Of a stretch of 64,000 nucleotides of DNA, positions 7,922 through 47,985 are shown piece by piece. A program made the position numbers and the translations under genes. The first letter of the stretch is position 1; the number at the start of each line of letters is the position of its first letter. The notes under the pieces were generated by a model. It was not told the DNA's origin. It saw only the letters and a list, made by a program, of their open reading frames with translations, and did no database searches. This DNA comes from Mariprofundales bacterium. Lineage in GTDB: Bacteria; Pseudomonadota; Zetaproteobacteria; Mariprofundales; J009. The stretch spans positions 6,427 through 70,426 of the forward strand of contig JAUZRF010000052.1 of assembly GCA_030950645.1 (NCBI GenBank), read 5' to 3'.

Positions 7922-7972
7922 GTAATTACTCAGCACCCTGCCCAAAAATGGCTATAACTGCTGAGTAGTTAC
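7922..7972 (-). repeat. MITE-family remnant (copy A): long-form tail plus fused termini, with the palindromic core deleted
   Basis: GTAATTACTCAG-caccctgcccaaaaatggct-ATAACTGCTGAGTAGTTAC. The reverse complement matches the outer 12 bp plus the last about 39 bp of the 153-bp copy at 9056-9208, and about 98 internal bp are missing. Confidence 0.75.
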
Positions 7973-7973
7973 G

Positions 7974-9059
7974 ATGACGCTCCATATCCTTGAACCCACC
8001 CTGATCAACGATTCCGGCCACTGCTATACCGTGGCGCGGGCGTTGATTGATGTTGCCGTGGTTAGCGAGCCGGTCACGCCGATCCATCTATGGGCAGGCA
8101 GGCAGGCGGAGGCGCGGTTGATTGATCTACCAACGGTGCAACTCACGCCCTGCTTTTCGCGGAAATTGCGGCGCATTCAGCTTCATTTTCTGCTCAGACG
8201 GCTGTTGCGTGCTGGGGAGAGTGTGTTTGTGCTTACCGCTTCGCGGGCGGAGCTATTCTCCTATGCCATGATTCCAAAAGCTCTTCGTCAGCGTGGCAAT
8301 GCCGTCTTTTATGTTCATCAGATGCGGATGGATGCCAAGCGCCTTCGGCGTTTGCAGTGGATTGCCCGCCGAGCGCCGGAGATGCGTATTTTGACGACCA
8401 CCGAGGCGTTGGCGCAGTCGATTTCCCAAGCGGGGTTTGCGCAGGTGCGTTGTCAGCCTTATCCCCTTGCGCTGCCCGAGGCGCTGCCTGCGACACCGCC
8501 GTTTCGCCATCTGCTGTTTCCTGGGATGGCACGGATGGATAAAAACCTAGCTTTGGTGGCGGAGGTCATTGGGCGGATGCATCAGCGTGGGTGTACTATT
8601 CCGGTGCATCTGCAGGCGGCACCCAACCATCACGGTGAATTTGCGCCGGATGTGGCGGCATTGCTGCAAAAGATTCGTCATATCGGTTATCCCCATTTGA
8701 CGATGCCGGAGCAGGCGGTGGATGGTGCAGCGTACCTGGATCAGTTTCGTGGCGCGATCTGTTTGCAGCCCTTCCATCGTGACCAATATGCAGATAAAGT
8801 GAGTGGAATTACCCTTGATGCCTTAGGGCAAGCGTGTCCGGTGGTGGTGCGCTCCAGGATTTGGGCGGCTACCATGGTCACCCGTTATGATGCAGGAGCG
8901 GTGGTGGATGGTGACGATGCCAACATCTGGCTCGATGCCATTATCGCGGTGATCGCCGATTACCCCCGTTATCAGGCGAACTGTTGTCAGGCGTATGCAG
9001 AGCTTCGTCAACAGCACGATCCGGCACGCCTATTCGCCGCAATTATGGATACGGTGTAA
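7974..9059 (+). CDS. Uncharacterised protein, possibly a GT-B-fold glycosyltransferase
   Basis: 361-aa ORF in the LPS-type cluster. I recognise no strong family motif. The C-terminal segment (VSGITLDALGQACPVVV) weakly resembles the nucleotide-sugar binding region of GT-B enzymes. The stop codon TAA (9057-9059) lies inside the MITE terminus. Confidence 0.6.
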   Translation: MTLHILEPTLINDSGHCYTVARALIDVAVVSEPVTPIHLWAGRQAEARLIDLPTVQLTPCFSRKLRRIQLHFLLRRLLRAGESVFVLTASRAELFSYAMIPKALRQRGNAVFYVHQMRMDAKRLRRLQWIARRAPEMRILTTTEALAQSISQAGFAQVRCQPYPLALPEALPATPPFRHLLFPGMARMDKNLALVAEVIGRMHQRGCTIPVHLQAAPNHHGEFAPDVAALLQKIRHIGYPHLTMPEQAVDGAAYLDQFRGAICLQPFHRDQYADKVSGITLDALGQACPVVVRSRIWAATMVTRYDAGAVVDGDDANIWLDAIIAVIADYPRYQANCCQAYAELRQQHDPARLFAAIMDTV

Positions 9060-9208
9060 CTACTCAGCTCACTTCCGGTTTTCCCGATAGCGGCGTTGAA
9101 AAATGCTCATTTACAGTAGTAAACTCCGCTTTTTCGCCTTGCTATCAGGAAAACCGGAAGCAATCTGAGCAGTTACAGCCATTTTTGGGTAGGGTGCTGA
9201 GTAGTTAC
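9056..9208 (+). mobile_element. MITE-like palindromic element, long form (copy B, 153 bp) with 8-bp TSD GATACGGT
   Basis: The termini are GTAACTACTCAG and CTGAGTAGTTAC. Imperfect inverted arms of about 36 bp enclose a core that pairs almost to its centre. There is an extra 3' module (agccatttttgggtagggtg plus a third 12-mer). Identical GATACGGT is found at 9048-9055 and 9209-9216. Confidence 0.9.
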
Positions 9209-9228
9209 GATACGGTTAAGGAGCAGCG

Positions 9229-10014
9229 ATGAGTCGTCCACCAATTTCGGCCTATATCATGACATTCAATGAGGCGGAGAAGATTGTTGATGCCATCGCC
9301 AGTGTGCGCTGGGCGGATGAGGTGGTGGTGATCGACTCCTTTAGCACCGATGGCACCGATCGCATCGCAGAGGAGATGGGGGCGCGGGTGGAGTCGGTGC
9401 CGTTTCATACCTTTGGCCAGATTCGCAACACGGCGATGGATGCCTGCCGTCATGATTGGATCTTCAGCCTTGATGCCGATGAGCGTTGCACCCGGTCGGC
9501 AGCCGAGGAGATTCAACGCACGGTGGATCTGCCGGATGCTGTTGATGCCTACTTTATACCTCGCCGCAACTGGTATTTGGGGCGTTGGGTGATGCATTCG
9601 GGCTGGTACCCGGACTACCGTCAGCCGCAACTGTTTCGCCGTGGTGCGCTTGCATTCGACTCTCAGGCGGAGGTGCATGAGGAGTACACCATTCAGGGCA
9701 CGGTGGGGTATCTAACGCAGGATATTATTCAGTTTCCCTACATGAACATCGAGCAGATGGTGCACAAGATGCAGCGTTACTCGACGCTGGGGGCGGAGAA
9801 GTGTGACCGTCAGGGTAAGCAGGGCGGTATTGGTAAAGGGTTGCTGCATGGGCTATGGAGTTTTTTCCGCCATTATGTGATCAAACTGGGGTTTCTTGAT
9901 GGCCGTGCCGGGTTGATGATTGCCGTGGGCAACTTTGAGGGCACCTTCTACCGCTATGCCAAATTGGCTGCCAGACAACAAAACTGGCTGAAAAAACCCC
10001 CATCGCACCCATAA
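9229..10014 (+). CDS. Glycosyltransferase family 2
   Basis: N-terminal GT2 signature ISAYIMTFNEAEKIVDAIASVRWADEVVVIDSFSTDGT and a DAD motif (SLDADE). AAGGAG lies 7 nt upstream of the ATG. Confidence 0.85.
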   Translation: MSRPPISAYIMTFNEAEKIVDAIASVRWADEVVVIDSFSTDGTDRIAEEMGARVESVPFHTFGQIRNTAMDACRHDWIFSLDADERCTRSAAEEIQRTVDLPDAVDAYFIPRRNWYLGRWVMHSGWYPDYRQPQLFRRGALAFDSQAEVHEEYTIQGTVGYLTQDIIQFPYMNIEQMVHKMQRYSTLGAEKCDRQGKQGGIGKGLLHGLWSFFRHYVIKLGFLDGRAGLMIAVGNFEGTFYRYAKLAARQQNWLKKPPSHP

Positions 10015-16918: not shown

Positions 16919-16977
16919 GTAATTACGCAGCTCACGCCTTGCCATCAGCAAAACCGGAAGCGATCTGAGTAGTATAC
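16919..16977 (+). repeat. MITE-family remnant (copy G) with internal deletion
   Basis: gtaattacgcagctcac is joined directly to gccttgccatcagcaaaaccggaagcgatctgagtagtatac (left terminus plus right arm). The flanks gatgttcg and gatgtaac share GATGT. Confidence 0.7.
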
Positions 16978-17307: not shown

Positions 17308-17390
17308 ACCACTTTTTCGCCTTGTTATCAGGATAATCATAATAACTCTAAGTAGTTGCACTCATTTTTTGGTAAAATGCTGAGTAATTA
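17308..17390 (+). repeat. MITE-family remnant (copy H): degenerate right half plus long-form tail
   Basis: actttttcgccttgttatcagg...taactctaagtagttgcactcattttttggtaaaatgctgagtaatta aligns with the right arm and tail of copy B. The element end overlaps the first ATG of the mfd ORF. Confidence 0.65.
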
Positions 17391-20300
17391 TGCTGCAAAT
17401 GCGGCTTGAATCTGTCTTTCCAGTGCCGATACCGCCTAAAACAGGCATGGTGCCGAGCTCGCTGCTAGGCTGTGCCGCCTCCATGAATAGTCATTCTTTA
17501 TCCGCCTTGGGCTGGCGCCTGTCTGAACTGGCACGGTGCAGGCCGAAGCGATTGCTGGTCTATATTACGCCGGATCTGCGCAGCTATCGTACCTTGGCTG
17601 AGGAGCTCTCATTTTTCCTGCCGCAAGCCGATCATCTATGGCGTTTCCCCGCCTGGGAGGTGCTGCCCTATGATCGCGTCAGCCCGCACCATGCTATTGT
17701 CGGGGAACGATTCGCTACCTTAAGTCGCCTGTTGCGTCAGCCCAATCCGAGCGGGGTGCTGATTACCGCCCTGCCAGCATGGCTACAACGCATCGCACCG
17801 CCATCATCGGTGACCGCCCATGTATGGCAGCTCAAGGTGGGCGATCAACTTGATCTTGGGGCACTCCAGCACCAATTGATCGAGGCGGGGATGCAACCGG
17901 TGGAGCGGGTGATGGATAGTGGCGAATTTGCCGTGCGTGGTGGCCTGTTCGATATCTGGCCCGCCACCTCCAATGCTCCGATCCGTATCGACCTATTTGG
18001 TGACGATATTGACTCGATCCACACCTTTGACATCGATAGCCAGCGCTCTGGTGCTGCTATTACCGCCTTTGTCTCGGTGCCGGTGCGCGAGGTGATTCTT
18101 GATCAACCTGGTCGGGAGACCTTTTGCGCCGCCTTTCGTGCCCGCTTCCCCCATCTGCGCGGCCACCCCATGCTCACCGCCGCAAAGGTGGGACGGCCGC
18201 ACCCTGGTATTGAGGCGCTGCTGCCGCTGGCCTATCACCAGACTGCACGCTTGCAAGATTACCTGCCATCCGATGCGGTAATCGTCAGTAGCAGCGATCT
18301 TCTGCCTCAGCGCGACCAGTTCGGTGCGCAACTGCGCTCCCATTTTGATCTGATGCGCCACACCGAGGATCCCGCGATCAGCCCGCAGGAGCTGTTTGCG
18401 GTCGAGAGCGATATTCGCGCGACGCTGATTACTCAGCAGGAGGCGCAACTGCATTTGCCGCCGGTTGGTGCCGCTCCGGCGTTATCCGATTTCAGCCAGC
18501 GCCAGGCTCCACTCCATGCCTTGCGTGATCGGTTGCGCCAACAGCTGAGTGATGGCTGGCGGCTGCTGCTGATTGCCCATGGCCCGGGTCAGGCCGAACG
18601 GATGCGGGAGGTTTGTGCGCCGCTGGAGTGTGCCTTTGCCGACTGTGCTGGGCTGCACGATCTGCCGGATGCACGCTCGGCTAGCGGCCCGACTATTTTC
18701 CAAACCTTGGGCTTTGTCGAACAGGGCTTCGTGCTGGAACACGACAAGCTGTTGGTGCTGACCGGACGCGAGCTGTTGGGGCAACGCATCAGTGGCAGCA
18801 GGCACCGCTCGATCTCGGCCATTCGCGCCAATGTGTTTCAGCAGTTACAGGAGCTGGTGCCCGGCAACATGGTGATCCATGAGGATCATGGTTTAGGGCG
18901 CTATTGTGGGCTTGAAACCATGGAGGTGGAGCCGGGGCAGCAGGCTGATTTCCTCCATATTGAATACGCTGGTGACGCCTCGATCTTTGTGCCGGTGGAG
19001 GAGCTTGCCCGTCTTCACCCCTATGTTGGCGACTCCAATCCGGCACTAAACAAGCTCGGTAGCGACAAATGGAAGAAGACGCGCCAGCGGGTAGAGACCG
19101 ACCTGCTGGTGATTGCCCATGAGCTGGTAGCGGTGGAGGCGCGGCGACGGCAGGTGCGTCACGAGGTGGTTGATCTTGCGGCGATTCGTGATGCGTACGA
19201 TGAGTTTTGCGCCCGTTTTCCATTTGAAGAGACCGAGGATCAGCAGCAGGCGATTGATCAGGTGTTGGCCGACATGCAGCAGCCACTGCCGATGGATCGG
19301 GTGGTGTGCGGTGATGTCGGTTTTGGCAAAACTGAGGTGGCGATGCGTGCCGCCTTTGTGGCCGCCGCAGATGGCCGCCAAGTGGCGATGCTGGCACCGA
19401 CCACGGTGCTGGCCAACCAGCACTACACCAGCTTGCGCGAACGCTTCGCTGGCACCGGCCTTGAGATTGCGCTGTTATCCCGCCTCCAGGGCAAAGCCGA
19501 GAGTGCGCGCATCATCACTGGGCTGCAATTGGGTACGGTGCAGATCATCGTCGGCACCCATCGGCTGCTCTCTGCTGCGATCAAGTTCTCCAATCTTGGG
19601 CTGGTGATTGTCGATGAGGAGCACCGCTTCGGCGTGAAGCATAAAGAGGCGATGAAAAAGCTCCATGCCTCGGTTGATTTGATGACCATGACCGCCACTC
19701 CGATCCCGCGTACCCTGCACCAGACCCTCTCTGGCCTGCGCAGTGTCTCCATTATCTCCACCCCGCCGAGCGAACGGGAGGCGATTCGTACCATCGTCTG
19801 TCAATTCGATCTTCACCTTGCTGCCGAGGCGATCCGGCGTGAGCTCTACCGTGGCGGGCAGGTCTATTATCTGCATAACCATGTCAAAAGTATTGACCGC
19901 GTGGCGCAAAGGCTGCGCGAACAGGTGCCGGAGGCGGAGATTGGCATTGCCCACGGTCAGATGGGGGCGGCGGTGCTCGATCGCGCCATGATGGCGTTTC
20001 ATGAGGGGCGGCTGCACATCTTGGTCTGCACCACCATTGTGGAATCGGGGCTCGATGTGCCCAACGCCAACACCATGATTGTTGAACGGGCTGATCTGCT
20101 AGGCTTAGCCCAGCTTCACCAGATTCGTGGTCGGGTGGGGCGTAGCCATCGCCAGGCATTTGCGTACCTCTTCACCCCCGATCCGCGTGCGATCACGCCC
20201 GATGCCCGGGAGCGGCTACACGCGATCGCTCAGCACAGTGAGTTGGGTGCGGGCTTCATGCTGGCGCGGCAGGACATGGAGATTCGTGGCGCCGGTAACC

Positions 20301-25205: not shown

Positions 25206-25281
25206 TGGCTCCCCGGGCCGGACTCGAACCAGCGACAAGGTGATTAACAGTCACCCGCTCTACCAACTGAGCTACCGGGGA
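25206..25281 (-). tRNA. tRNA-Asn (anticodon GTT), CCA encoded
   Basis: The reverse complement TCCCCGGTAGCTCAGTTGGTAGAGCGGGTGACTGTTAATCACCTTGTCGCTGGTTCGAGTCCGGCCCGGGGAGCCA folds by hand into a cloverleaf. It has a 7-bp acceptor, GCTC/GAGC D stem, GGTGA/TCACC anticodon stem with loop CTGTTAA, and a GCTGG/CCGGC T stem with TTCGAGT loop. Confidence 0.92.
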
Positions 25282-25319: not shown

Positions 25320-25358
25320 TTGCGAGACTTCCCGCCAACGAATTTCTATGACCAAAAT

Positions 25359-25480
25359 GTAACTGCTCAGATTGCTTCTGCTTTTTCTGATAGCAAGGCG
25401 AAAAAGCGGAGTTTACTACTGTAAATGGGTATTTTTCAACGCCGCTATCGTGGAAAGCCGGAAGTGATCTGAGTAGTTAC
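25359..25480 (-). mobile_element. MITE-like palindromic element, short form (copy C, 122 bp) with 8-bp TSD ACCAAAAT
   Basis: GTAACTGCTCAG...CTGAGTAGTTAC. The core is the reverse complement of the copy B core. Identical ACCAAAAT is found at 25351-25358 and 25481-25488. Confidence 0.9.
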
Positions 25481-25506
25481 ACCAAAATGATCCCAGTGAG
25501 ATCCCA

Positions 25507-33241: not shown

Positions 33242-33329
33242 GTAAACTCCGCTTTTTCGCCTTGCTATCAGTAAAAACCGGAAGCAATCTGAGCAGTTAC
33301 GGGATGTTTTCAATGGGTGCTGAGTAGTT
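33242..33329 (+). repeat. MITE-family half copy (copy D): right half of the palindrome plus a diverged long-form tail
   Basis: gtaaactccgctttttcgccttgctatcagtaaaaaccggaagcaatctgagcagttac + gggatgttttcaatgggtg + ctgagtagtt. It begins at the palindrome centre and ends at the start codon of the next gene. Confidence 0.8.
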
Positions 33330-33330
33330 G

Positions 33331-33987
33331 ATGCCATCACTACGCGTTCGTTATCAAACCTTGGAGTTTGGTCTGACGGATATTCATCTGCGAACGCTGA
33401 GAAACAACCAGGAGTTCTCGGATGATGAGGGTGTGGCCGAAAAGTTAGGGATCTCATCGGCGACATGGCCGCTGTTTGGCATCGTCTGGCCTTCGGGGCA
33501 GGTGCTCGCCCATCTCATGTTTGATTATGAGATTGCAGGCAAGCGTATTTTGGAGGTGGGTTGTGGCATTGCACTGTCGAGTCTAGTGCTGAACCACCGT
33601 CAAGCAGATATTACGGCGACAGATTACCACCCCGAGGCGGCAAATTTTCTTCGGGAGAATACCGCGCTCAATCACGATGCCGCCATCCCTTTTTTCCGCA
33701 CGGGCTGGGGCGATCCCGATGTTGGCCTCGGTAAATTTGATCTTATTATTGGTAGTGATCTGCTTTATGAGCGCGGACATGCGGAATTGCTATCGACTTT
33801 TATTGATAACCATACCAAGCCGCATTGCGAAGTGATTCTGATTGATCCAGGACGCGGCCACCATGCCCGCTTTAGCAAACGGATGGTGAGCCTGGGGTAT
33901 TTGCATCGCCAAACTCGGCCTGAAAACACCGACTATCTGGATAAGCCTCTGCCAAAAGGACAAGTGCTGCACTATCAGCGTTCGTAG
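33331..33987 (+). CDS. Class I SAM-dependent methyltransferase, Methyltransf_16 (putative protein-lysine methyltransferase)-like
   Basis: GIVWPSGQVLAHLM...AGKRILEVGCGIALSSLVL...ITATDYHPEA...GWGDP...FDLIIGSDLLYE matches the METTL21/FAM86-type pattern. I take ATG 33331 as the start. The track TTG at 33328 lies in the repeat terminus. Confidence 0.72.
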   Translation: MPSLRVRYQTLEFGLTDIHLRTLRNNQEFSDDEGVAEKLGISSATWPLFGIVWPSGQVLAHLMFDYEIAGKRILEVGCGIALSSLVLNHRQADITATDYHPEAANFLRENTALNHDAAIPFFRTGWGDPDVGLGKFDLIIGSDLLYERGHAELLSTFIDNHTKPHCEVILIDPGRGHHARFSKRMVSLGYLHRQTRPENTDYLDKPLPKGQVLHYQRS

Positions 33988-34012
33988 GGGAGCTATCATG
34001 TCGTACAGCCGG

Positions 34013-34165
34013 ATAACTACTCAGCTCACTCCTGACTTTCCTGATAGCGGCGTTGAAAAATGCGCATTTACAGTAGTAAACTCTGCTTTTTCGCCTTGCT
34101 ATCAGGAAAACCGTAAGTAATCTGAGTAGTTACAACCATTTTTGGGTAGGGTGCTGAGTCGTTAC
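34013..34165 (+). mobile_element. MITE-like palindromic element, long form (copy E), no intact TSD
   Basis: ATAACTACTCAG...CTGAGTAGTTAC-aaccatttttgggtagggtg-CTGAGTCGTTAC. It is collinear with copy B over its full length, with about a dozen substitutions by eye. The flanks acagccgg and tttttagg differ. Confidence 0.85.
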
Positions 34166-34293
34166 TTTTTAGGTTAGAATAAATTCGCCGTGTCAGCGCC
34201 CCCAGTCTACTCGACAGTGCACTCTGGGTTATTTCCTTTTCTTCACCAAGGCGACATAGCTATACGCCCCGTTACAGGGCTTGCATTGATCGT

Positions 34294-34312
34294 GATAACG
34301 ATTATCATTCGC
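34294..34312 (+). promoter_or_regulatory. Fur box overlapping a candidate promoter of the fur-like gene
   Basis: GATAACGATTATCATTCGC matches 15 of 19 positions of the GATAATGATAATCATTATC consensus by hand alignment. It overlaps a TTGCAT(34281)-N16-TATCAT(34303) promoter-like pair that ends 8 nt before the ATG. Confidence 0.6.
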
Positions 34313-34316
34313 ACCC

Positions 34317-34712
34317 ATGAAGCTTACCCAACAACGCACAGCGATCCTGCAACTGGTTACCAACTCCGATCACCACTGGGATGCCGAAGCCATTGTGGTC
34401 GCACTCAACAATCAGGGGCGAAAAATTGGTAACGCCACCGTCTATCGCGGCTTGCAAGCCCTCGAGCAGGCCGGAATGCTCACCTCACTACCAATCAATG
34501 GCCGCAAACATTACGAACTCGGCGGCAAACAGCATCACGACCACTTAATCTGCACTGCCTGCGGACAAATCAAAGAGTTCTGCCACCCAGAAATCGAACG
34601 ATTACAACTGGAGATGGCCGCGCAAAACGCGTTTGTGGTACATGACCACCAATTGGTGCTCTACGGTACCTGCCAAGCATGCACTGCCAAATCCAACCGA
34701 GCCCAAGCATGA
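34317..34712 (+). CDS. Fur-family metalloregulator
   Basis: 131 aa. It has a winged-helix N-terminal region (TQQRTAILQLV...ATVYRGLQALEQAGML) and a metal-site region HHDHLICTACGQIKEF...CQAC with two CxxC pairs. Confidence 0.85.
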   Translation: MKLTQQRTAILQLVTNSDHHWDAEAIVVALNNQGRKIGNATVYRGLQALEQAGMLTSLPINGRKHYELGGKQHHDHLICTACGQIKEFCHPEIERLQLEMAAQNAFVVHDHQLVLYGTCQACTAKSNRAQA

Positions 34713-43008: not shown

Positions 43009-45539
43009 CTATGGACGAAATGAAGGCTAAGGCCATCGGCCACCGAGGCCGGTAGCTCATCCACATCCACCCGATTCATTTCCGGCAGAATCACTTCATG
43101 AAGCCCCAACCGTTTGACCGCCAATAGCTTCTCACGCACCCCACCAATCGCCAGCACCTCGCCCGTCAGGGTCAATTCGCCGGTCATCGCCATTGGCTTC
43201 GCCGCCTGATTGCAGGCCAGAGAGAGCAGTGCAGTCGCTAGCGTAATCCCAGCCGATGGGCCATCTTTGGGCACCGCCCCCTCCGGCACATGAATATGTA
43301 CCCAAGACTTATCAAAAAAACCTTTCTCCCCACCCAATGTCTTAAGATGGGACTCCACATAAGAGAACGCGATCTCTGCCGACTCCTGCATCACCTTGCC
43401 CAGCTGTCCAGTCACCTTAAGTCCACGACGATCCTGATGAATCACTGCCGCCTCCAGCGATAGCGTCACCCCGCCCATCGCAGTCCAAGCCAAGCCGGTA
43501 GCTAGGCCAATCCCGCAACGCAACGGCTCGGGCTGATAACGCGGCTGGCCAATAAAATTGGCAAGATTGCCCACCCCAATCGTCACAGGAGCCTCTAGTT
43601 TACCCATCGCCATCTGATGCACTACCTTGCGCAGCCCCTTCTTCAACAACCGCTCGAGATGACGCACCCCCGGCTCACGGGCATAAAACTCCACCATCTG
43701 ATGGATCGCAGCGGGTGTGAAACGCAGCTCTTCACGGGCCAGCCCATGCGTCTCCAACTGCCGAGGTAACAAGTGTTTGCGCGCGATCTCCTCTTTTTCC
43801 GATCCCATATAACCCGGCAAACGGATAATCTCCGCACGATCCCGTAACGCAGGAGGAATGGTATCAAGCTGGTTGGCAGTAAGCAGGAATAGCACCTGAG
43901 AAAGATCAAATCGCACATCAAGGTAGTGATCCAAAAAATCACTATTCTGCTCCGGATCAAGCGCCTCGAGCAACGCACTGGCCGGATCGCCTCGGGCATC
44001 CGCACCGATCTTGTCCACCTCATCAATCATGATCACCGGATTGCTCACCTTCACCTGCTTAAAGGCCTGAATGAACTTGCCTGGCATCGCTCCAATATAG
44101 GTACGACGATGTCCCTTGATCTCTGCCTCATCGTGCATTCCCCCCACTGAGAAACGGAAGAATGGCCGATTCACCGCATCGGCGATCGCCTTTCCGAGGC
44201 TGGTTTTCCCCACCCCCGGCGCGCCAACAAATAGCAAAATCGAGCCGCCAAGCTCCTCCTTGCGCGCACCAACGGCAATAAATTCCAGAATACGATCCTT
44301 AATATCCTCCAGTCCCGAGTGGTGACGATTAAGTGCCCTAGCCGCCCGCTTCAGGTCGTACCGATCGCGCGCACGCTTACCCCAAGGCAGCGCCACCAGC
44401 CAATCCAAATAGTTACGCGTCACCGCATGGTCCGGCATTGAGGGGTCAAGTGATTCGAGTTTGGATAGTTCCTCGTTAAACACCTCGGCTGCTTCTTCGC
44501 TGAATTTCAGACCTTTGGCTTTGGCCTTAAACTTTTTGATCAGATCATTTTGGGGGTCTCTCTCCAGACCCAGCTCCCGCTTGATCTCGCGTAACTGCTC
44601 ATTCAAAAAGAACTTACGCTGTTGCTCAGAGACGCGTTGATCAATATTCTCACGAATCTTATGCTGAACCTTGCTCACGCTAAGCTCACGGTTAAGTAGC
44701 GTCATCACCAGCTTCATGCGTTCAAATATTGGTAATGTTTCCAGAACCTTCTGCAACTCGCTGCGATCTGCCGTCGTTAAACCTGCGGCAAAGTCAGCCA
44801 ATTTCCCCGGGTCATCCACCGTAAAACGCGTGGCGAAAAGGCGCAGCTCCTCTTCATACATCGGATTGTGTTTAAGCAGATCTTTGATGGTGTTGATGAT
44901 TGCCACCGTATAGGCGCGCAATTGAATGTTGTCGCTGTAATCTGTTGCCAGATGGTAGCTGACCCGTGCACGAATGGTAGCCATCGCGTCCGATCCCTCA
45001 GCATCGGATTTTTCAGTCTCAACATCCTCAATCTCCGCATCCTTCGCCCCAATCCACTCCTGTATTCGGCAGCGCTCCAAACACTCCACCACCAAATGAA
45101 GGCCATGATCTTCGATTTCAATCGCCTTCATAATCTTAGCAACCACACCAACATCACACAGATTATCCGGCGTGAATGGCGCTTCCTCATCACGCACCAT
45201 GATTAAGCCCACCATATTATTGCCGGAGTTCGCCAAACTGCGAATTTGATCCATCAACGCATCGCTTTCATAGACCAGTGGGACAATCAAACCGGGAAAG
45301 AGCGGCCGATTAGAGAGCGGCAAGATCTGCAATTGCTCCGGAAGGATCTCACTCCTCGGGATCAAATTTACATTTTCTGTTGCTCCTTCAGCGGGCGCGT
45401 CATCCGCATCATCATCGATGGCCTCAGCGGTAGTAGCGTCATTCACGGTGGATTCATCCAGCTCAGCAAGGGTTTCCGGGTTGTCAGTCTCTTCATGGTT
45501 CATGGGTAGCTTTGTAGAGGCTGAAGCACCATTTTTCAA
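42978..45539 (-). CDS. lon: ATP-dependent Lon protease
   Basis: 853 aa. Lon N-domain (LPLSNRPLFPG), Walker A GAPGVGKTSLGKAIA, Walker B MIDEVDK and the protease site PKDGPSAGITLATAL. An acidic extension of about 60 aa precedes the N-domain. Confidence 0.93.
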   Translation of the reverse strand: MKNGASASTKLPMNHEETDNPETLAELDESTVNDATTAEAIDDDADDAPAEGATENVNLIPRSEILPEQLQILPLSNRPLFPGLIVPLVYESDALMDQIRSLANSGNNMVGLIMVRDEEAPFTPDNLCDVGVVAKIMKAIEIEDHGLHLVVECLERCRIQEWIGAKDAEIEDVETEKSDAEGSDAMATIRARVSYHLATDYSDNIQLRAYTVAIINTIKDLLKHNPMYEEELRLFATRFTVDDPGKLADFAAGLTTADRSELQKVLETLPIFERMKLVMTLLNRELSVSKVQHKIRENIDQRVSEQQRKFFLNEQLREIKRELGLERDPQNDLIKKFKAKAKGLKFSEEAAEVFNEELSKLESLDPSMPDHAVTRNYLDWLVALPWGKRARDRYDLKRAARALNRHHSGLEDIKDRILEFIAVGARKEELGGSILLFVGAPGVGKTSLGKAIADAVNRPFFRFSVGGMHDEAEIKGHRRTYIGAMPGKFIQAFKQVKVSNPVIMIDEVDKIGADARGDPASALLEALDPEQNSDFLDHYLDVRFDLSQVLFLLTANQLDTIPPALRDRAEIIRLPGYMGSEKEEIARKHLLPRQLETHGLAREELRFTPAAIHQMVEFYAREPGVRHLERLLKKGLRKVVHQMAMGKLEAPVTIGVGNLANFIGQPRYQPEPLRCGIGLATGLAWTAMGGVTLSLEAAVIHQDRRGLKVTGQLGKVMQESAEIAFSYVESHLKTLGGEKGFFDKSWVHIHVPEGAVPKDGPSAGITLATALLSLACNQAAKPMAMTGELTLTGEVLAIGGVREKLLAVKRLGLHEVILPEMNRVDVDELPASVADGLSLHFVHSYPEVAALLF

Positions 45540-47816: not shown

Positions 47817-47856
47817 ATTTTTTCTCTCGCCTCTTCTTAATTTTTTATAAATACAT

Positions 47857-47979
47857 GTAACTGCTCAGATTGCTTCTGATTTTTTCTCGATAGCAAGGGG
47901 AAAAAGCGGAGTTTACTACTGTAAATGTGCATTTTTCAATATAGCTATCGGAAAAACCGAGAGTGAGCTGAGTAGTTAC
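47857..47979 (-). mobile_element. MITE-like palindromic element, short form (copy F) inside the rplM-rpsI intergenic spacer
   Basis: GTAACTGCTCAG...CTGAGTAGTTAC is collinear with copy C. The flanks aaatacat and agatgatt are not identical. The element ends 6 nt from the rplM stop codon. Confidence 0.85.
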
Positions 47980-47985
47980 AGATGA

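Follow-up and report, generated by a model that had tools for sequence, protein, structure and literature searches.

Short palindromic repeats occur at eight intergenic sites in a 64,000-nucleotide stretch of DNA from a Mariprofundales bacterium (contig JAUZRF010000052.1, positions 6,427 to 70,426; hereafter, the window), raising the question of what these elements are and how they came to be dispersed. The first-pass annotation, made from the letters alone, had proposed one family of transposed, non-autonomous repeats. Our analysis indicates that the elements are very probably non-coding, non-autonomous DNA transposons (MITEs, or miniature inverted-repeat transposable elements) that are moved in trans by an ISBst12-group DDE transposase encoded elsewhere in the genome. 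ISBst12-group insertion sequences (ISs) have the same 12-bp ends and likewise duplicate 8 bp of target, and in this respect the elements are of an ordinary kind. What appears to be new is the connection with the ISBst12 group, the occurrence in many phyla with exchanged palindromic bodies, and an architecture with two right ends.

Eight intergenic sites form one repeat family

Membership of the family was assessed with the terminal 12-mer GTAACTRCTCAG. With at most one mismatch allowed, 14 matches are present in the window against 0.29 expected, and none of 100 shuffles reaches 14. All but one fall within the eight reported sites (13/14); the remaining match, at 44591 within an open reading frame (ORF), is probably a chance occurrence. 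Repeat finding and MAFFT alignment joined all eight sites as one family, and an nhmmer profile built from the full copies recovered six of them in the window (B, G, E, H, F and C). These results bear out the grouping of the eight sites.

The sites divide into four full copies, B (9056-9176), G (34013-34133), E (25359-25480) and H (47857-47979), and four deletion remnants (A, C, D and F). The full copies span 121-123 bp and fold as a single long hairpin, in agreement with the palindromes of about 122 bp described at first; the 12-bp termini are perfect or near-perfect in B, E and H, and pairing extends inward from them. Every site is intergenic (eight of eight) and lies within a housekeeping region. 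The elements, at 121-153 bp, have no coding capacity, with no ORF belonging to the family, and a tblastn search of the window with six ISBst12-type transposases found no transposase (best E 0.1). The element is thus non-autonomous, as had been supposed.

Target duplications and an empty orthologous site

Copy B is flanked by a perfect 8-bp duplication, GATACGGT, and copy E by a different one, ACCAAAAT, both read directly from the window, as the first-pass annotation had noted for two copies. These duplications are not part of the repeat consensus, since their sequences differ between B and E and among 64 further elements in other genomes (see below).

The nearest homologues of the ORF that precedes B (7974-9059) are from other Mariprofundales. 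One of these relatives, L207 (contig JAWPNG010000075.1), has the same gene order as the window: heptosyltransferase, carbamoyltransferase, the orthologue of ORF 7974-9059, family-2 glycosyltransferase and methyltransferase. The B junction is empty in L207, where the orthologues of 7974-9059 and 9229-10014 overlap by ATGA, and it is also empty in L206 (a JGI contig), where the same two orthologues are 11 bp apart; site A is likewise absent from L207. Deleting B and one GATACGGT from the window restores ...ATGGATACGGTTAAGGAGCAGCGATGA, with the stop/start ATGA overlap as in L207. In the occupied site, the bases G-TAA of B supply the TAA stop (9057-9059) of ORF 7974-9059, the upstream gene loses four residues, and, with the duplication in place, the downstream gene retains an intact AAGGAG ribosome-binding site. 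The two relatives are 64-73% identical at the protein level, and the filled/empty polymorphism at B is therefore one between species, not strains. At least one insertion in this lineage, B, is demonstrably derived and, since it has its own duplication, independent. Together, the 8-bp duplications and the empty orthologous site point to transposition rather than to spread of the repetitive extragenic palindrome (REP) type, as had been argued from the duplications.

A family 12-mer, GTCACTACTCAG, is also present on the minus strand at the edge of the L207 stretch (8-19), and the L207 genome probably hosts the family as well.

The termini are those of ISBst12-group insertion sequences

The first-pass annotation had suggested the IS66 family for ends of this type. 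ISDge4 of Deinococcus geothermalis, a member of the ISBst12 group of that family, encodes a single 449-aa transposase and has terminal inverted repeats GTGACTACTCAGCA / GTAACTGCTCAGCA and the 8-bp direct repeat CCTCGATG, and its transposition has been observed (PMC12898284). Plasmid pHTA426 of Geobacillus kaustophilus is also reported to carry one ISBst12-group element (PMC8024623). This element is 1635 bp long, with ends GTATCTATTCAGCCC / GTAACTATTCAGCCC and the duplication GACGAGTT, and its 485-aa transposase matches the Pfam domains DDE_Tnp_IS66 (1.9e-64) and zf-IS66.

A tblastn search of plasmids with the pHTA426 transposase returned 408 records. Around eight of the plasmid copies, inverted termini of 12 nt (at least 10 of 12 positions), of whatever sequence, were sought next to a perfect 8-bp duplication. 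The Deinococcus wulumuqiensis copy (1454 bp) has GTAACTGCTCAGCA at both ends and the Leptolyngbya boryana copy (1575 bp) has GTAACTACTCAGG at both ends, while a Bradyrhizobium copy (1547 bp) has the variant GTAACTGCCCAGGT; variants ending TTCACC were found in ISKpn15 of Aeromonas (1534 bp) and in the ISAs1-type ISAs21 of Citrobacter (1530 bp). The window termini match the Deinococcus and Leptolyngbya ends at 12 of 12 positions and are identical to ISBst12-group IS ends.

A metagenomic scan with a profile of six such transposases yielded 80 loci. With at most two mismatches and within 400 bp, the 12-mer is present upstream in 69 of these loci, downstream in 73 and on both sides in 64, in which the paired 12-mers have a median spacing of 1560 bp. 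The consensus is GTAACT[A/G]CTCAG at both ends, with no conservation past position 14. IS fragments from Marinobacter and Polaromonas carry variant 12-mers and no MITE body. The occurrence of the same 12-mer, together with 8-bp duplications, on IS66-family elements confirms the earlier suggestion and narrows it to the single-ORF ISBst12 group.

Elements with the same termini occur in many phyla

The distribution of the termini was assessed by scanning 185,579 genomes, one per species, for GTAACTRCTCAG followed after 85-115 nt by CTGAGYAGTTAC, a pattern that by our own estimate is expected well under once by chance. At least 112 loci were found in many phyla, including Chloroflexota, Cyanobacteriota, Acidobacteriota, Elusimicrobia, Armatimonadota, Nitrospinota, Methylomirabilis and Firmicutes as well as Delta-, Beta-, Gamma- and Zetaproteobacteria. 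Among the matches listed, perfect 8-bp duplications bound 64 of the 113 two-terminus elements with enough flank, and 15 more have a duplication with one mismatch; the same test on these matches gave none at 6, 9 or 10 bp and two at 7 bp. The near-restriction of perfect duplications to this one length indicates that the stagger is 8 bp and no other length. Internally, the duplicated targets are rich in A+T.

The bodies between the termini are diverse. For the matches listed, the interiors of 115 elements fall into approximately 43 unrelated clusters. Most of these interiors can nonetheless pair strongly with themselves, and with the termini removed they have a median folding z of -6.4 (80% below -3). 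No transposase was found in the 112 MITE loci listed, and no pair of 12-mers 260-6000 bp apart encloses one.

Two candidate full-length parents were considered and rejected: L036 1400-3728 encloses housekeeping genes, and L063 5827-6834 has no credible ORF. The latter, a 1008-bp sequence in a gammaproteobacterial metagenome-assembled genome (MAG), is bounded by family 12-mers, has the perfect 8-bp duplication GTATTTTT, internal inverted repeats and a partial MITE at its right end, and appears to be a larger relative that is likewise non-autonomous. At the left end of an element in a Clostridiaceae MAG, a 30-bp unit, GTAACTACTCAG-CAGGTG-CTGAGCAGTTAC (L052 798-827), has its termini 6 bp apart, which suggests that nearly body-less versions exist. 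The interior of a cyanobacterial subfamily (L021 4728-4864, positions 34-124) is present in many cyanobacterial plasmids, with BLAST matches that stop short of the 12-bp termini, and may be a repeat common to other elements.

A long form carries two right ends

A longer form with a third 12-mer had been reported for the copies at 9056 and 34013, and is indeed seen in both. Its parts are, in order, the left end L (GTAACTACTCAG), the hairpin body, a first right end R1 (CTGAGCAGTTAC), a spacer and a second right end R2 (CTGAGTAGTTAC). R2 is an exact inverted copy of L and R1 has the G variant; in B and G the extension consists of a 20-bp spacer and the third 12-mer. The long form is a conserved architecture rather than an oddity of two copies, as it recurs with spacers of 8-20 bp in a Pseudomonadales MAG (two copies), Sedimenticola, a Thiotrichales MAG, Mariprofundaceae and two other gammaproteobacterial MAGs. 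The Mariprofundaceae spacer, AGCCATGGTTGGGTGGGGTG, is homologous to that in the window.

For seven of nine long forms from Gamma- and Zetaproteobacteria, perfect 8-bp duplications bound L and R2, not L and R1, which indicates that the long form is the unit that moved. The short copy E has its duplication at L/R1, and this pair of ends is therefore also usable. A second 12-mer was sought near either end of the full-length ISs as an origin of R1 and R2, and none was found; the two right ends are thus a feature of the MITE.

The hairpin and its apex

Folded as single strands, the cores of the full copies each form a long imperfect hairpin, with energies between -25 and -33 kcal/mol (z from -6.2 to -8.4) that no shuffled sequence equals; for copy B (9056-9176), the values are -33.2 kcal/mol and z -8.4. 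Across 20 aligned gamma- and zetaproteobacterial copies, 95.1% of the cells of the consensus hairpin are paired, with changes on both sides in 16 of 32 pairs. None of 500 shuffles reaches the observed pairing, and sliding the structure by 1-3 columns lowers it to 25-47%. In the window, the arms of E and H have uncompensated transitions. These patterns suggest that only well-paired master copies proliferate, or that the arms are homogenised; covariation by itself is no demonstration of RNA function.

The apex contains a sigma-70-like sequence, TTGAAA-18-TAAACT, that points from L to R. In each of the four full window copies this direction is also that of the gene downstream; over 21 copies, 11-13 are co-directional and 5 opposed, which is not significant. 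In the Mariprofundaceae copies L083 and L020 the -10-like hexamer is replaced and the apical stem is kept by compensatory changes. The count over 21 copies and the replaced hexamer speak against a promoter, and we regard one at the apex as unproven.

Comparison with Rfam gave only tRNA-Asn above the gathering threshold in the window. For the element itself, only generic long-hairpin miRNA models matched, all of them well short of their thresholds; the best, for the precursor of a plant miRNA, scored 35.6 bits where the gathering threshold is 110. A boxA-like antiterminator reading of TGCTCATTTACA in copy B, in which 10 of 13 positions match what we take to be the Escherichia coli rrn boxA, was rejected because the GCTC part varies among copies.

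The core of the apex, approximately 35 bp (AAAATGCTCATTTAC...GTAAACTCCGCTTTTT; window 9100-9135), is also found at the tip of palindromic elements whose termini are quite unlike those of the family. Such elements were seen in Halomonas sp. PA16-9 (termini GGCTTTGTACGAAAA...) and Haliscomenobacter hydrossis (termini GAGTGTGTTTGGGATTC...), and the core matches the Staphylococcus aureus 16S-23S spacer at 32 of 33 positions; the loci elsewhere are L114 2925-3085, L208 2940-3105 and L113 3001-3033. This core could be an independent functional module that has been picked up by different transposons.

Probable mobilisation in trans and its alternatives

Under the explanation that we favour, the transposase would recognise the 12-bp termini GTAACT[A/G]CTCAG and join them to a target cut with an 8-bp stagger, tending to be A+T-rich inside, and repair of the stagger would produce the 8-bp duplication. 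The element would offer one left end and two alternative right ends, with R1 paired to L at the base of a ~55-bp imperfect hairpin and R2 lying 8-20 bp farther out, so that either L/R2 (long form) or L/R1 (short form) could be used. Once inserted, copies would degenerate through point mutations and through deletions that take out the hairpin or one arm, giving the remnants A, C, D and F. We infer from the shared ends that an ISBst12-type transposase acts in trans in this host; the deletion mechanisms of the remnants, and any role of the hairpin, are likewise put forward from the arrangement of the sequences.

Several observations weigh against this account. Copies G and H lack flanking duplications. 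Only 6 of 58 full-length metagenomic IS copies (L126-L205) have a perfect 8-bp duplication, versus 64 of 113 MITEs, a low count that is likely due to chimeric flanks of repeats in short metagenome contigs. An nhmmer search of 90 IS loci with the MITE profile gave no match beyond the termini, only the 12-14 bp ends being common to both. The arms of about 36 bp described at first are not shared with the ISs as a whole. As the MITE interior matches no sampled IS, internal deletion from a specific parent is not supported, which weakens the notion of a deletion derivative and not that of mobilisation by such elements. Finally, no zetaproteobacterial label is present among the best 120 of at least 6290 transposase relatives, and the cognate transposase of these copies was not found in a host search that covered the 64-kb window.

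The elements might instead be primarily structured RNAs or regulatory modules, for instance an outward-facing promoter or a hairpin acting in transcript stability or termination, with a conserved host-level function and only secondary spread. The strong covariation over 20 copies, the sigma-70-like apex and the uniform orientation of the four full window copies are what such a role would lead one to expect. However, covariation is also expected if only well-paired master copies proliferate, the orientation bias is not significant over 21 copies, the -10-like hexamer is lost in L083 and L020 while the stem is kept, and no Rfam family reaches threshold. Moreover, the terminal repeats, 8-bp duplications and empty site need transposition anyway, and we consider a primarily regulatory nature improbable.

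Transposition by a machinery other than that of the ISBst12 group was also weighed. Several families duplicate 8 bp of target (IS1595, ISL3, IS256, IS6 and IS1), and the window contains no transposase of any kind, which leaves room for another driver in this host and for a coincidental match to ISBst12-group ends. Against such a coincidence, the termini match at 12 of 12 positions in several phyla, and the 12-mer occurs at both ends of 64 of 80 transposase loci, where we estimate the chance of a match (at most two mismatches within 400 bp) at ~0.03 per locus. GTAAC...CTCAG ends are not known from any of these five families (ISfinder family table), and we judge their involvement very improbable. 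Intergenic palindromes also call to mind REPs and bacterial interspersed mosaic elements (BIMEs), spread by a REP-associated tyrosine transposase (RAYT) of the IS200/IS605-like kind, or the attC-like sites of integron cassettes, the more so as the genes at 7974-9059 and 33328-33987 each lie between two copies. REPs are described as 20-40 bp long (PMC3733652), with GTAG or CGTC heads and no target duplication, whereas the present elements are 121-153 bp long, end in GTAAC and are bounded by 8-bp duplications. As for attC sites, no integrase was found, and the genes between the copies have housekeeping roles and orthologues that keep this order in a relative. With B an independent insertion bearing its own duplication, and with both the duplications and the empty site contradicting these mechanisms, there is hardly any chance that either applies. 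Mobilisation in trans by an ISBst12-group transposase is retained as the most probable explanation of the family.

Individual copies, remnants and neighbouring genes

Site A lies between a carbamoyltransferase gene and the uncharacterised ORF 7974-9059, and site B between this ORF and a family-2 glycosyltransferase gene. The ORF has no Pfam hit, some of its homologues are annotated as glycosyltransferase family 1, and its product is 100% identical to the NCBI hypothetical protein Q9M26_03665 [Mariprofundales bacterium], which places the window in a zetaproteobacterial MAG. The other sites are upstream of mfd and of fur, next to tRNA-Asn, downstream of sucA and in the rplM-rpsI spacer.

Copy B (plus strand) is a long form of 153 bp at 9056-9208, with L at 9056-9067, the hairpin body, R1 at 9165-9176, the spacer at 9177-9196 and R2 at 9197-9208. 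Its target-site duplications are at 9048-9055 on the left and 9209-9216 on the right, the latter followed by the AAGGAG motif and the ATG (9229) of the downstream gene. Copy G (34013-34165, plus strand), the other 153-bp long form, is 92% identical to B, has degenerate termini (ATAACT..., ...CTGAGTCGTTAC), lies upstream of fur and is one of the two full copies without a flanking duplication. Copy E (minus strand) is a 122-bp short form at 25359-25480, between tRNA-Asn (25206-25281, minus strand) and a leuA/cimA-like gene, with its duplication at 25351-25358 and 25481-25488. Copy H (47857-47979, minus strand), a 123-bp short form and the second copy without a duplication, lies in the rplM-rpsI spacer.

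In remnant A (7922-7972, minus strand, 51 bp), which ends 1 nt before the ATG at 7974, the L 12-mer is joined to the final 7 nt of R1, after which come the 20-bp spacer and R2. Such a junction would result if a long form were deleted from the CTCAG of L to the CTGAG of R1, with loss of the whole hairpin. The other remnants, all on the plus strand, retain right halves with differing breakpoints. Remnant C (16919-16977) keeps nothing but the right half, in which the R1 end is degenerate and the extension is missing (nhmmer E 3.8e-4), and remnant D (17308-17390), comprising right half, spacer and R2, is 77% identical to B 9126-9207 and abuts the mfd ATG (17390). Remnant F (33242-33329), which follows the stop of sucA and precedes the start of a methyltransferase gene, runs from the hairpin apex (GTAAACTCCGC...) to R1 (33289-33300), followed by the spacer and a degenerate R2.

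The outer right 12-mer of A, D and F stops 0-2 nt before a called start codon (7974; mfd 17390; 33328/33331), and these remnants now form the translation-initiation regions of the next genes (7961-7976, 17379-17392 and 33320-33333). Copy H widens the rplM-rpsI spacer to 169 bp (47817-47985) within this ribosomal-protein operon, where its long hairpin is evidently tolerated, and its promoter-like apex is directed at rpsI. Just upstream of fur (34317-34712), a Fur-box-like sequence, gataacgattatcatt, is present at 34293-34308, which suggests fur autoregulation. The GC skew of the window is positive over the first ~34 kb and negative over the remainder, up to 64 kb, with its cumulative maximum at copies F and G and fur; the change of sign near 34000 is a terminus-like switch or an inversion breakpoint, and no E. 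coli-type dif site was found there.

Implications for IS66-family transposition

To our knowledge, the transposition mechanism of the IS66 family, notably of the single-ORF ISBst12 group, is essentially uncharacterised. Dozens of unrelated bodies, with only 12 bp in common per end, nonetheless give clean 8-bp duplications, which suggests that nothing is needed in cis beyond these 12 bp and perhaps palindromy. What IS66-family transposition requires in cis is now testable, as ISDge4 transposes in the laboratory. A more far-reaching proposal is that the ISBst12-type ends define a pan-bacterial MITE superfamily with interchangeable palindromic bodies, for which a long hairpin or cruciform is required or strongly favoured in mobilisation. 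We offer this as speculation that is unlikely to hold as a whole. If it were true, the hairpin would juxtapose the ends of an element too short to bend, and the presence of R2 would be accounted for by the pairing that ties up L with R1 in the hairpin.

The element also explains one kind of intergenic repeat found in Zetaproteobacteria, Gammaproteobacteria (sulfur oxidisers and methanotrophs), Chloroflexota and Cyanobacteriota. Its insertions remodel gene ends: at B, the upstream gene takes its stop codon from the element and two genes that used to overlap are uncoupled, and H lies inside the rplM-rpsI operon.

Comparison with known systems

In size (100-250 bp) and intergenic location, the family resembles described bacterial MITEs, such as Correia/NEMIS of Neisseria, ERIC/IRU of enterobacteria, RUP, Nezha of Anabaena and Nostoc, MITEPsy1 and MITEPye1. 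These MITEs have terminal inverted repeats shared with ISs, direct repeats of the target and a stable predicted hairpin, are frequent in operons and are mobilised in trans (PMC3184786, PMC3189936, PMC11578231). They differ in parent, which is IS5 or IS1182 where a family is stated in those papers and, for Nezha, ISNpu3, whose family is not stated there. The duplication of MITEPsy1 is 4 bp long, in contrast to 8 bp in the window family. Correia elements are said to have IS30-like ends and a TA duplication, and RUP reportedly has an IS630 parent. In the literature searched, no described MITE is tied to IS66 or ISBst12, although ISNpu3 could belong there, and a 2024 review of prokaryotic MITEs contains no mention of IS66.

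The canonical three-ORF IS66 elements (IS66, IS679, ISEc8 and ISSfl3) are alike in the DDE_Tnp_IS66 domain, and have GTAA-type ends and 8-bp duplications (ISfinder family table). They differ in encoding the accessory proteins TnpA and TnpB, in their length of 2-3 kb and in their ends, which are of the GTAAGCG type and not GTAACTRCTCAG; their transposases are 22-23% identical to the ISBst12-type transposase.

The closest likeness is to the ISBst12-group ISs themselves (ISBst12, ISDge4, ISKpn15, ISAs21 and the pHTA426 copy), which share the 12-bp termini GTAACT[A/G]CTCAG, the 8-bp duplication and the occurrence in a broad range of phyla. These ISs are 1.4-2.0 kb long and encode one DDE transposase of 450-500 aa, whereas the window elements are non-coding and 121-153 bp long; the MITE interior is present in none of those sampled. 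They also have a single 12-mer near each end, whereas the long form of the MITE has two right ends.

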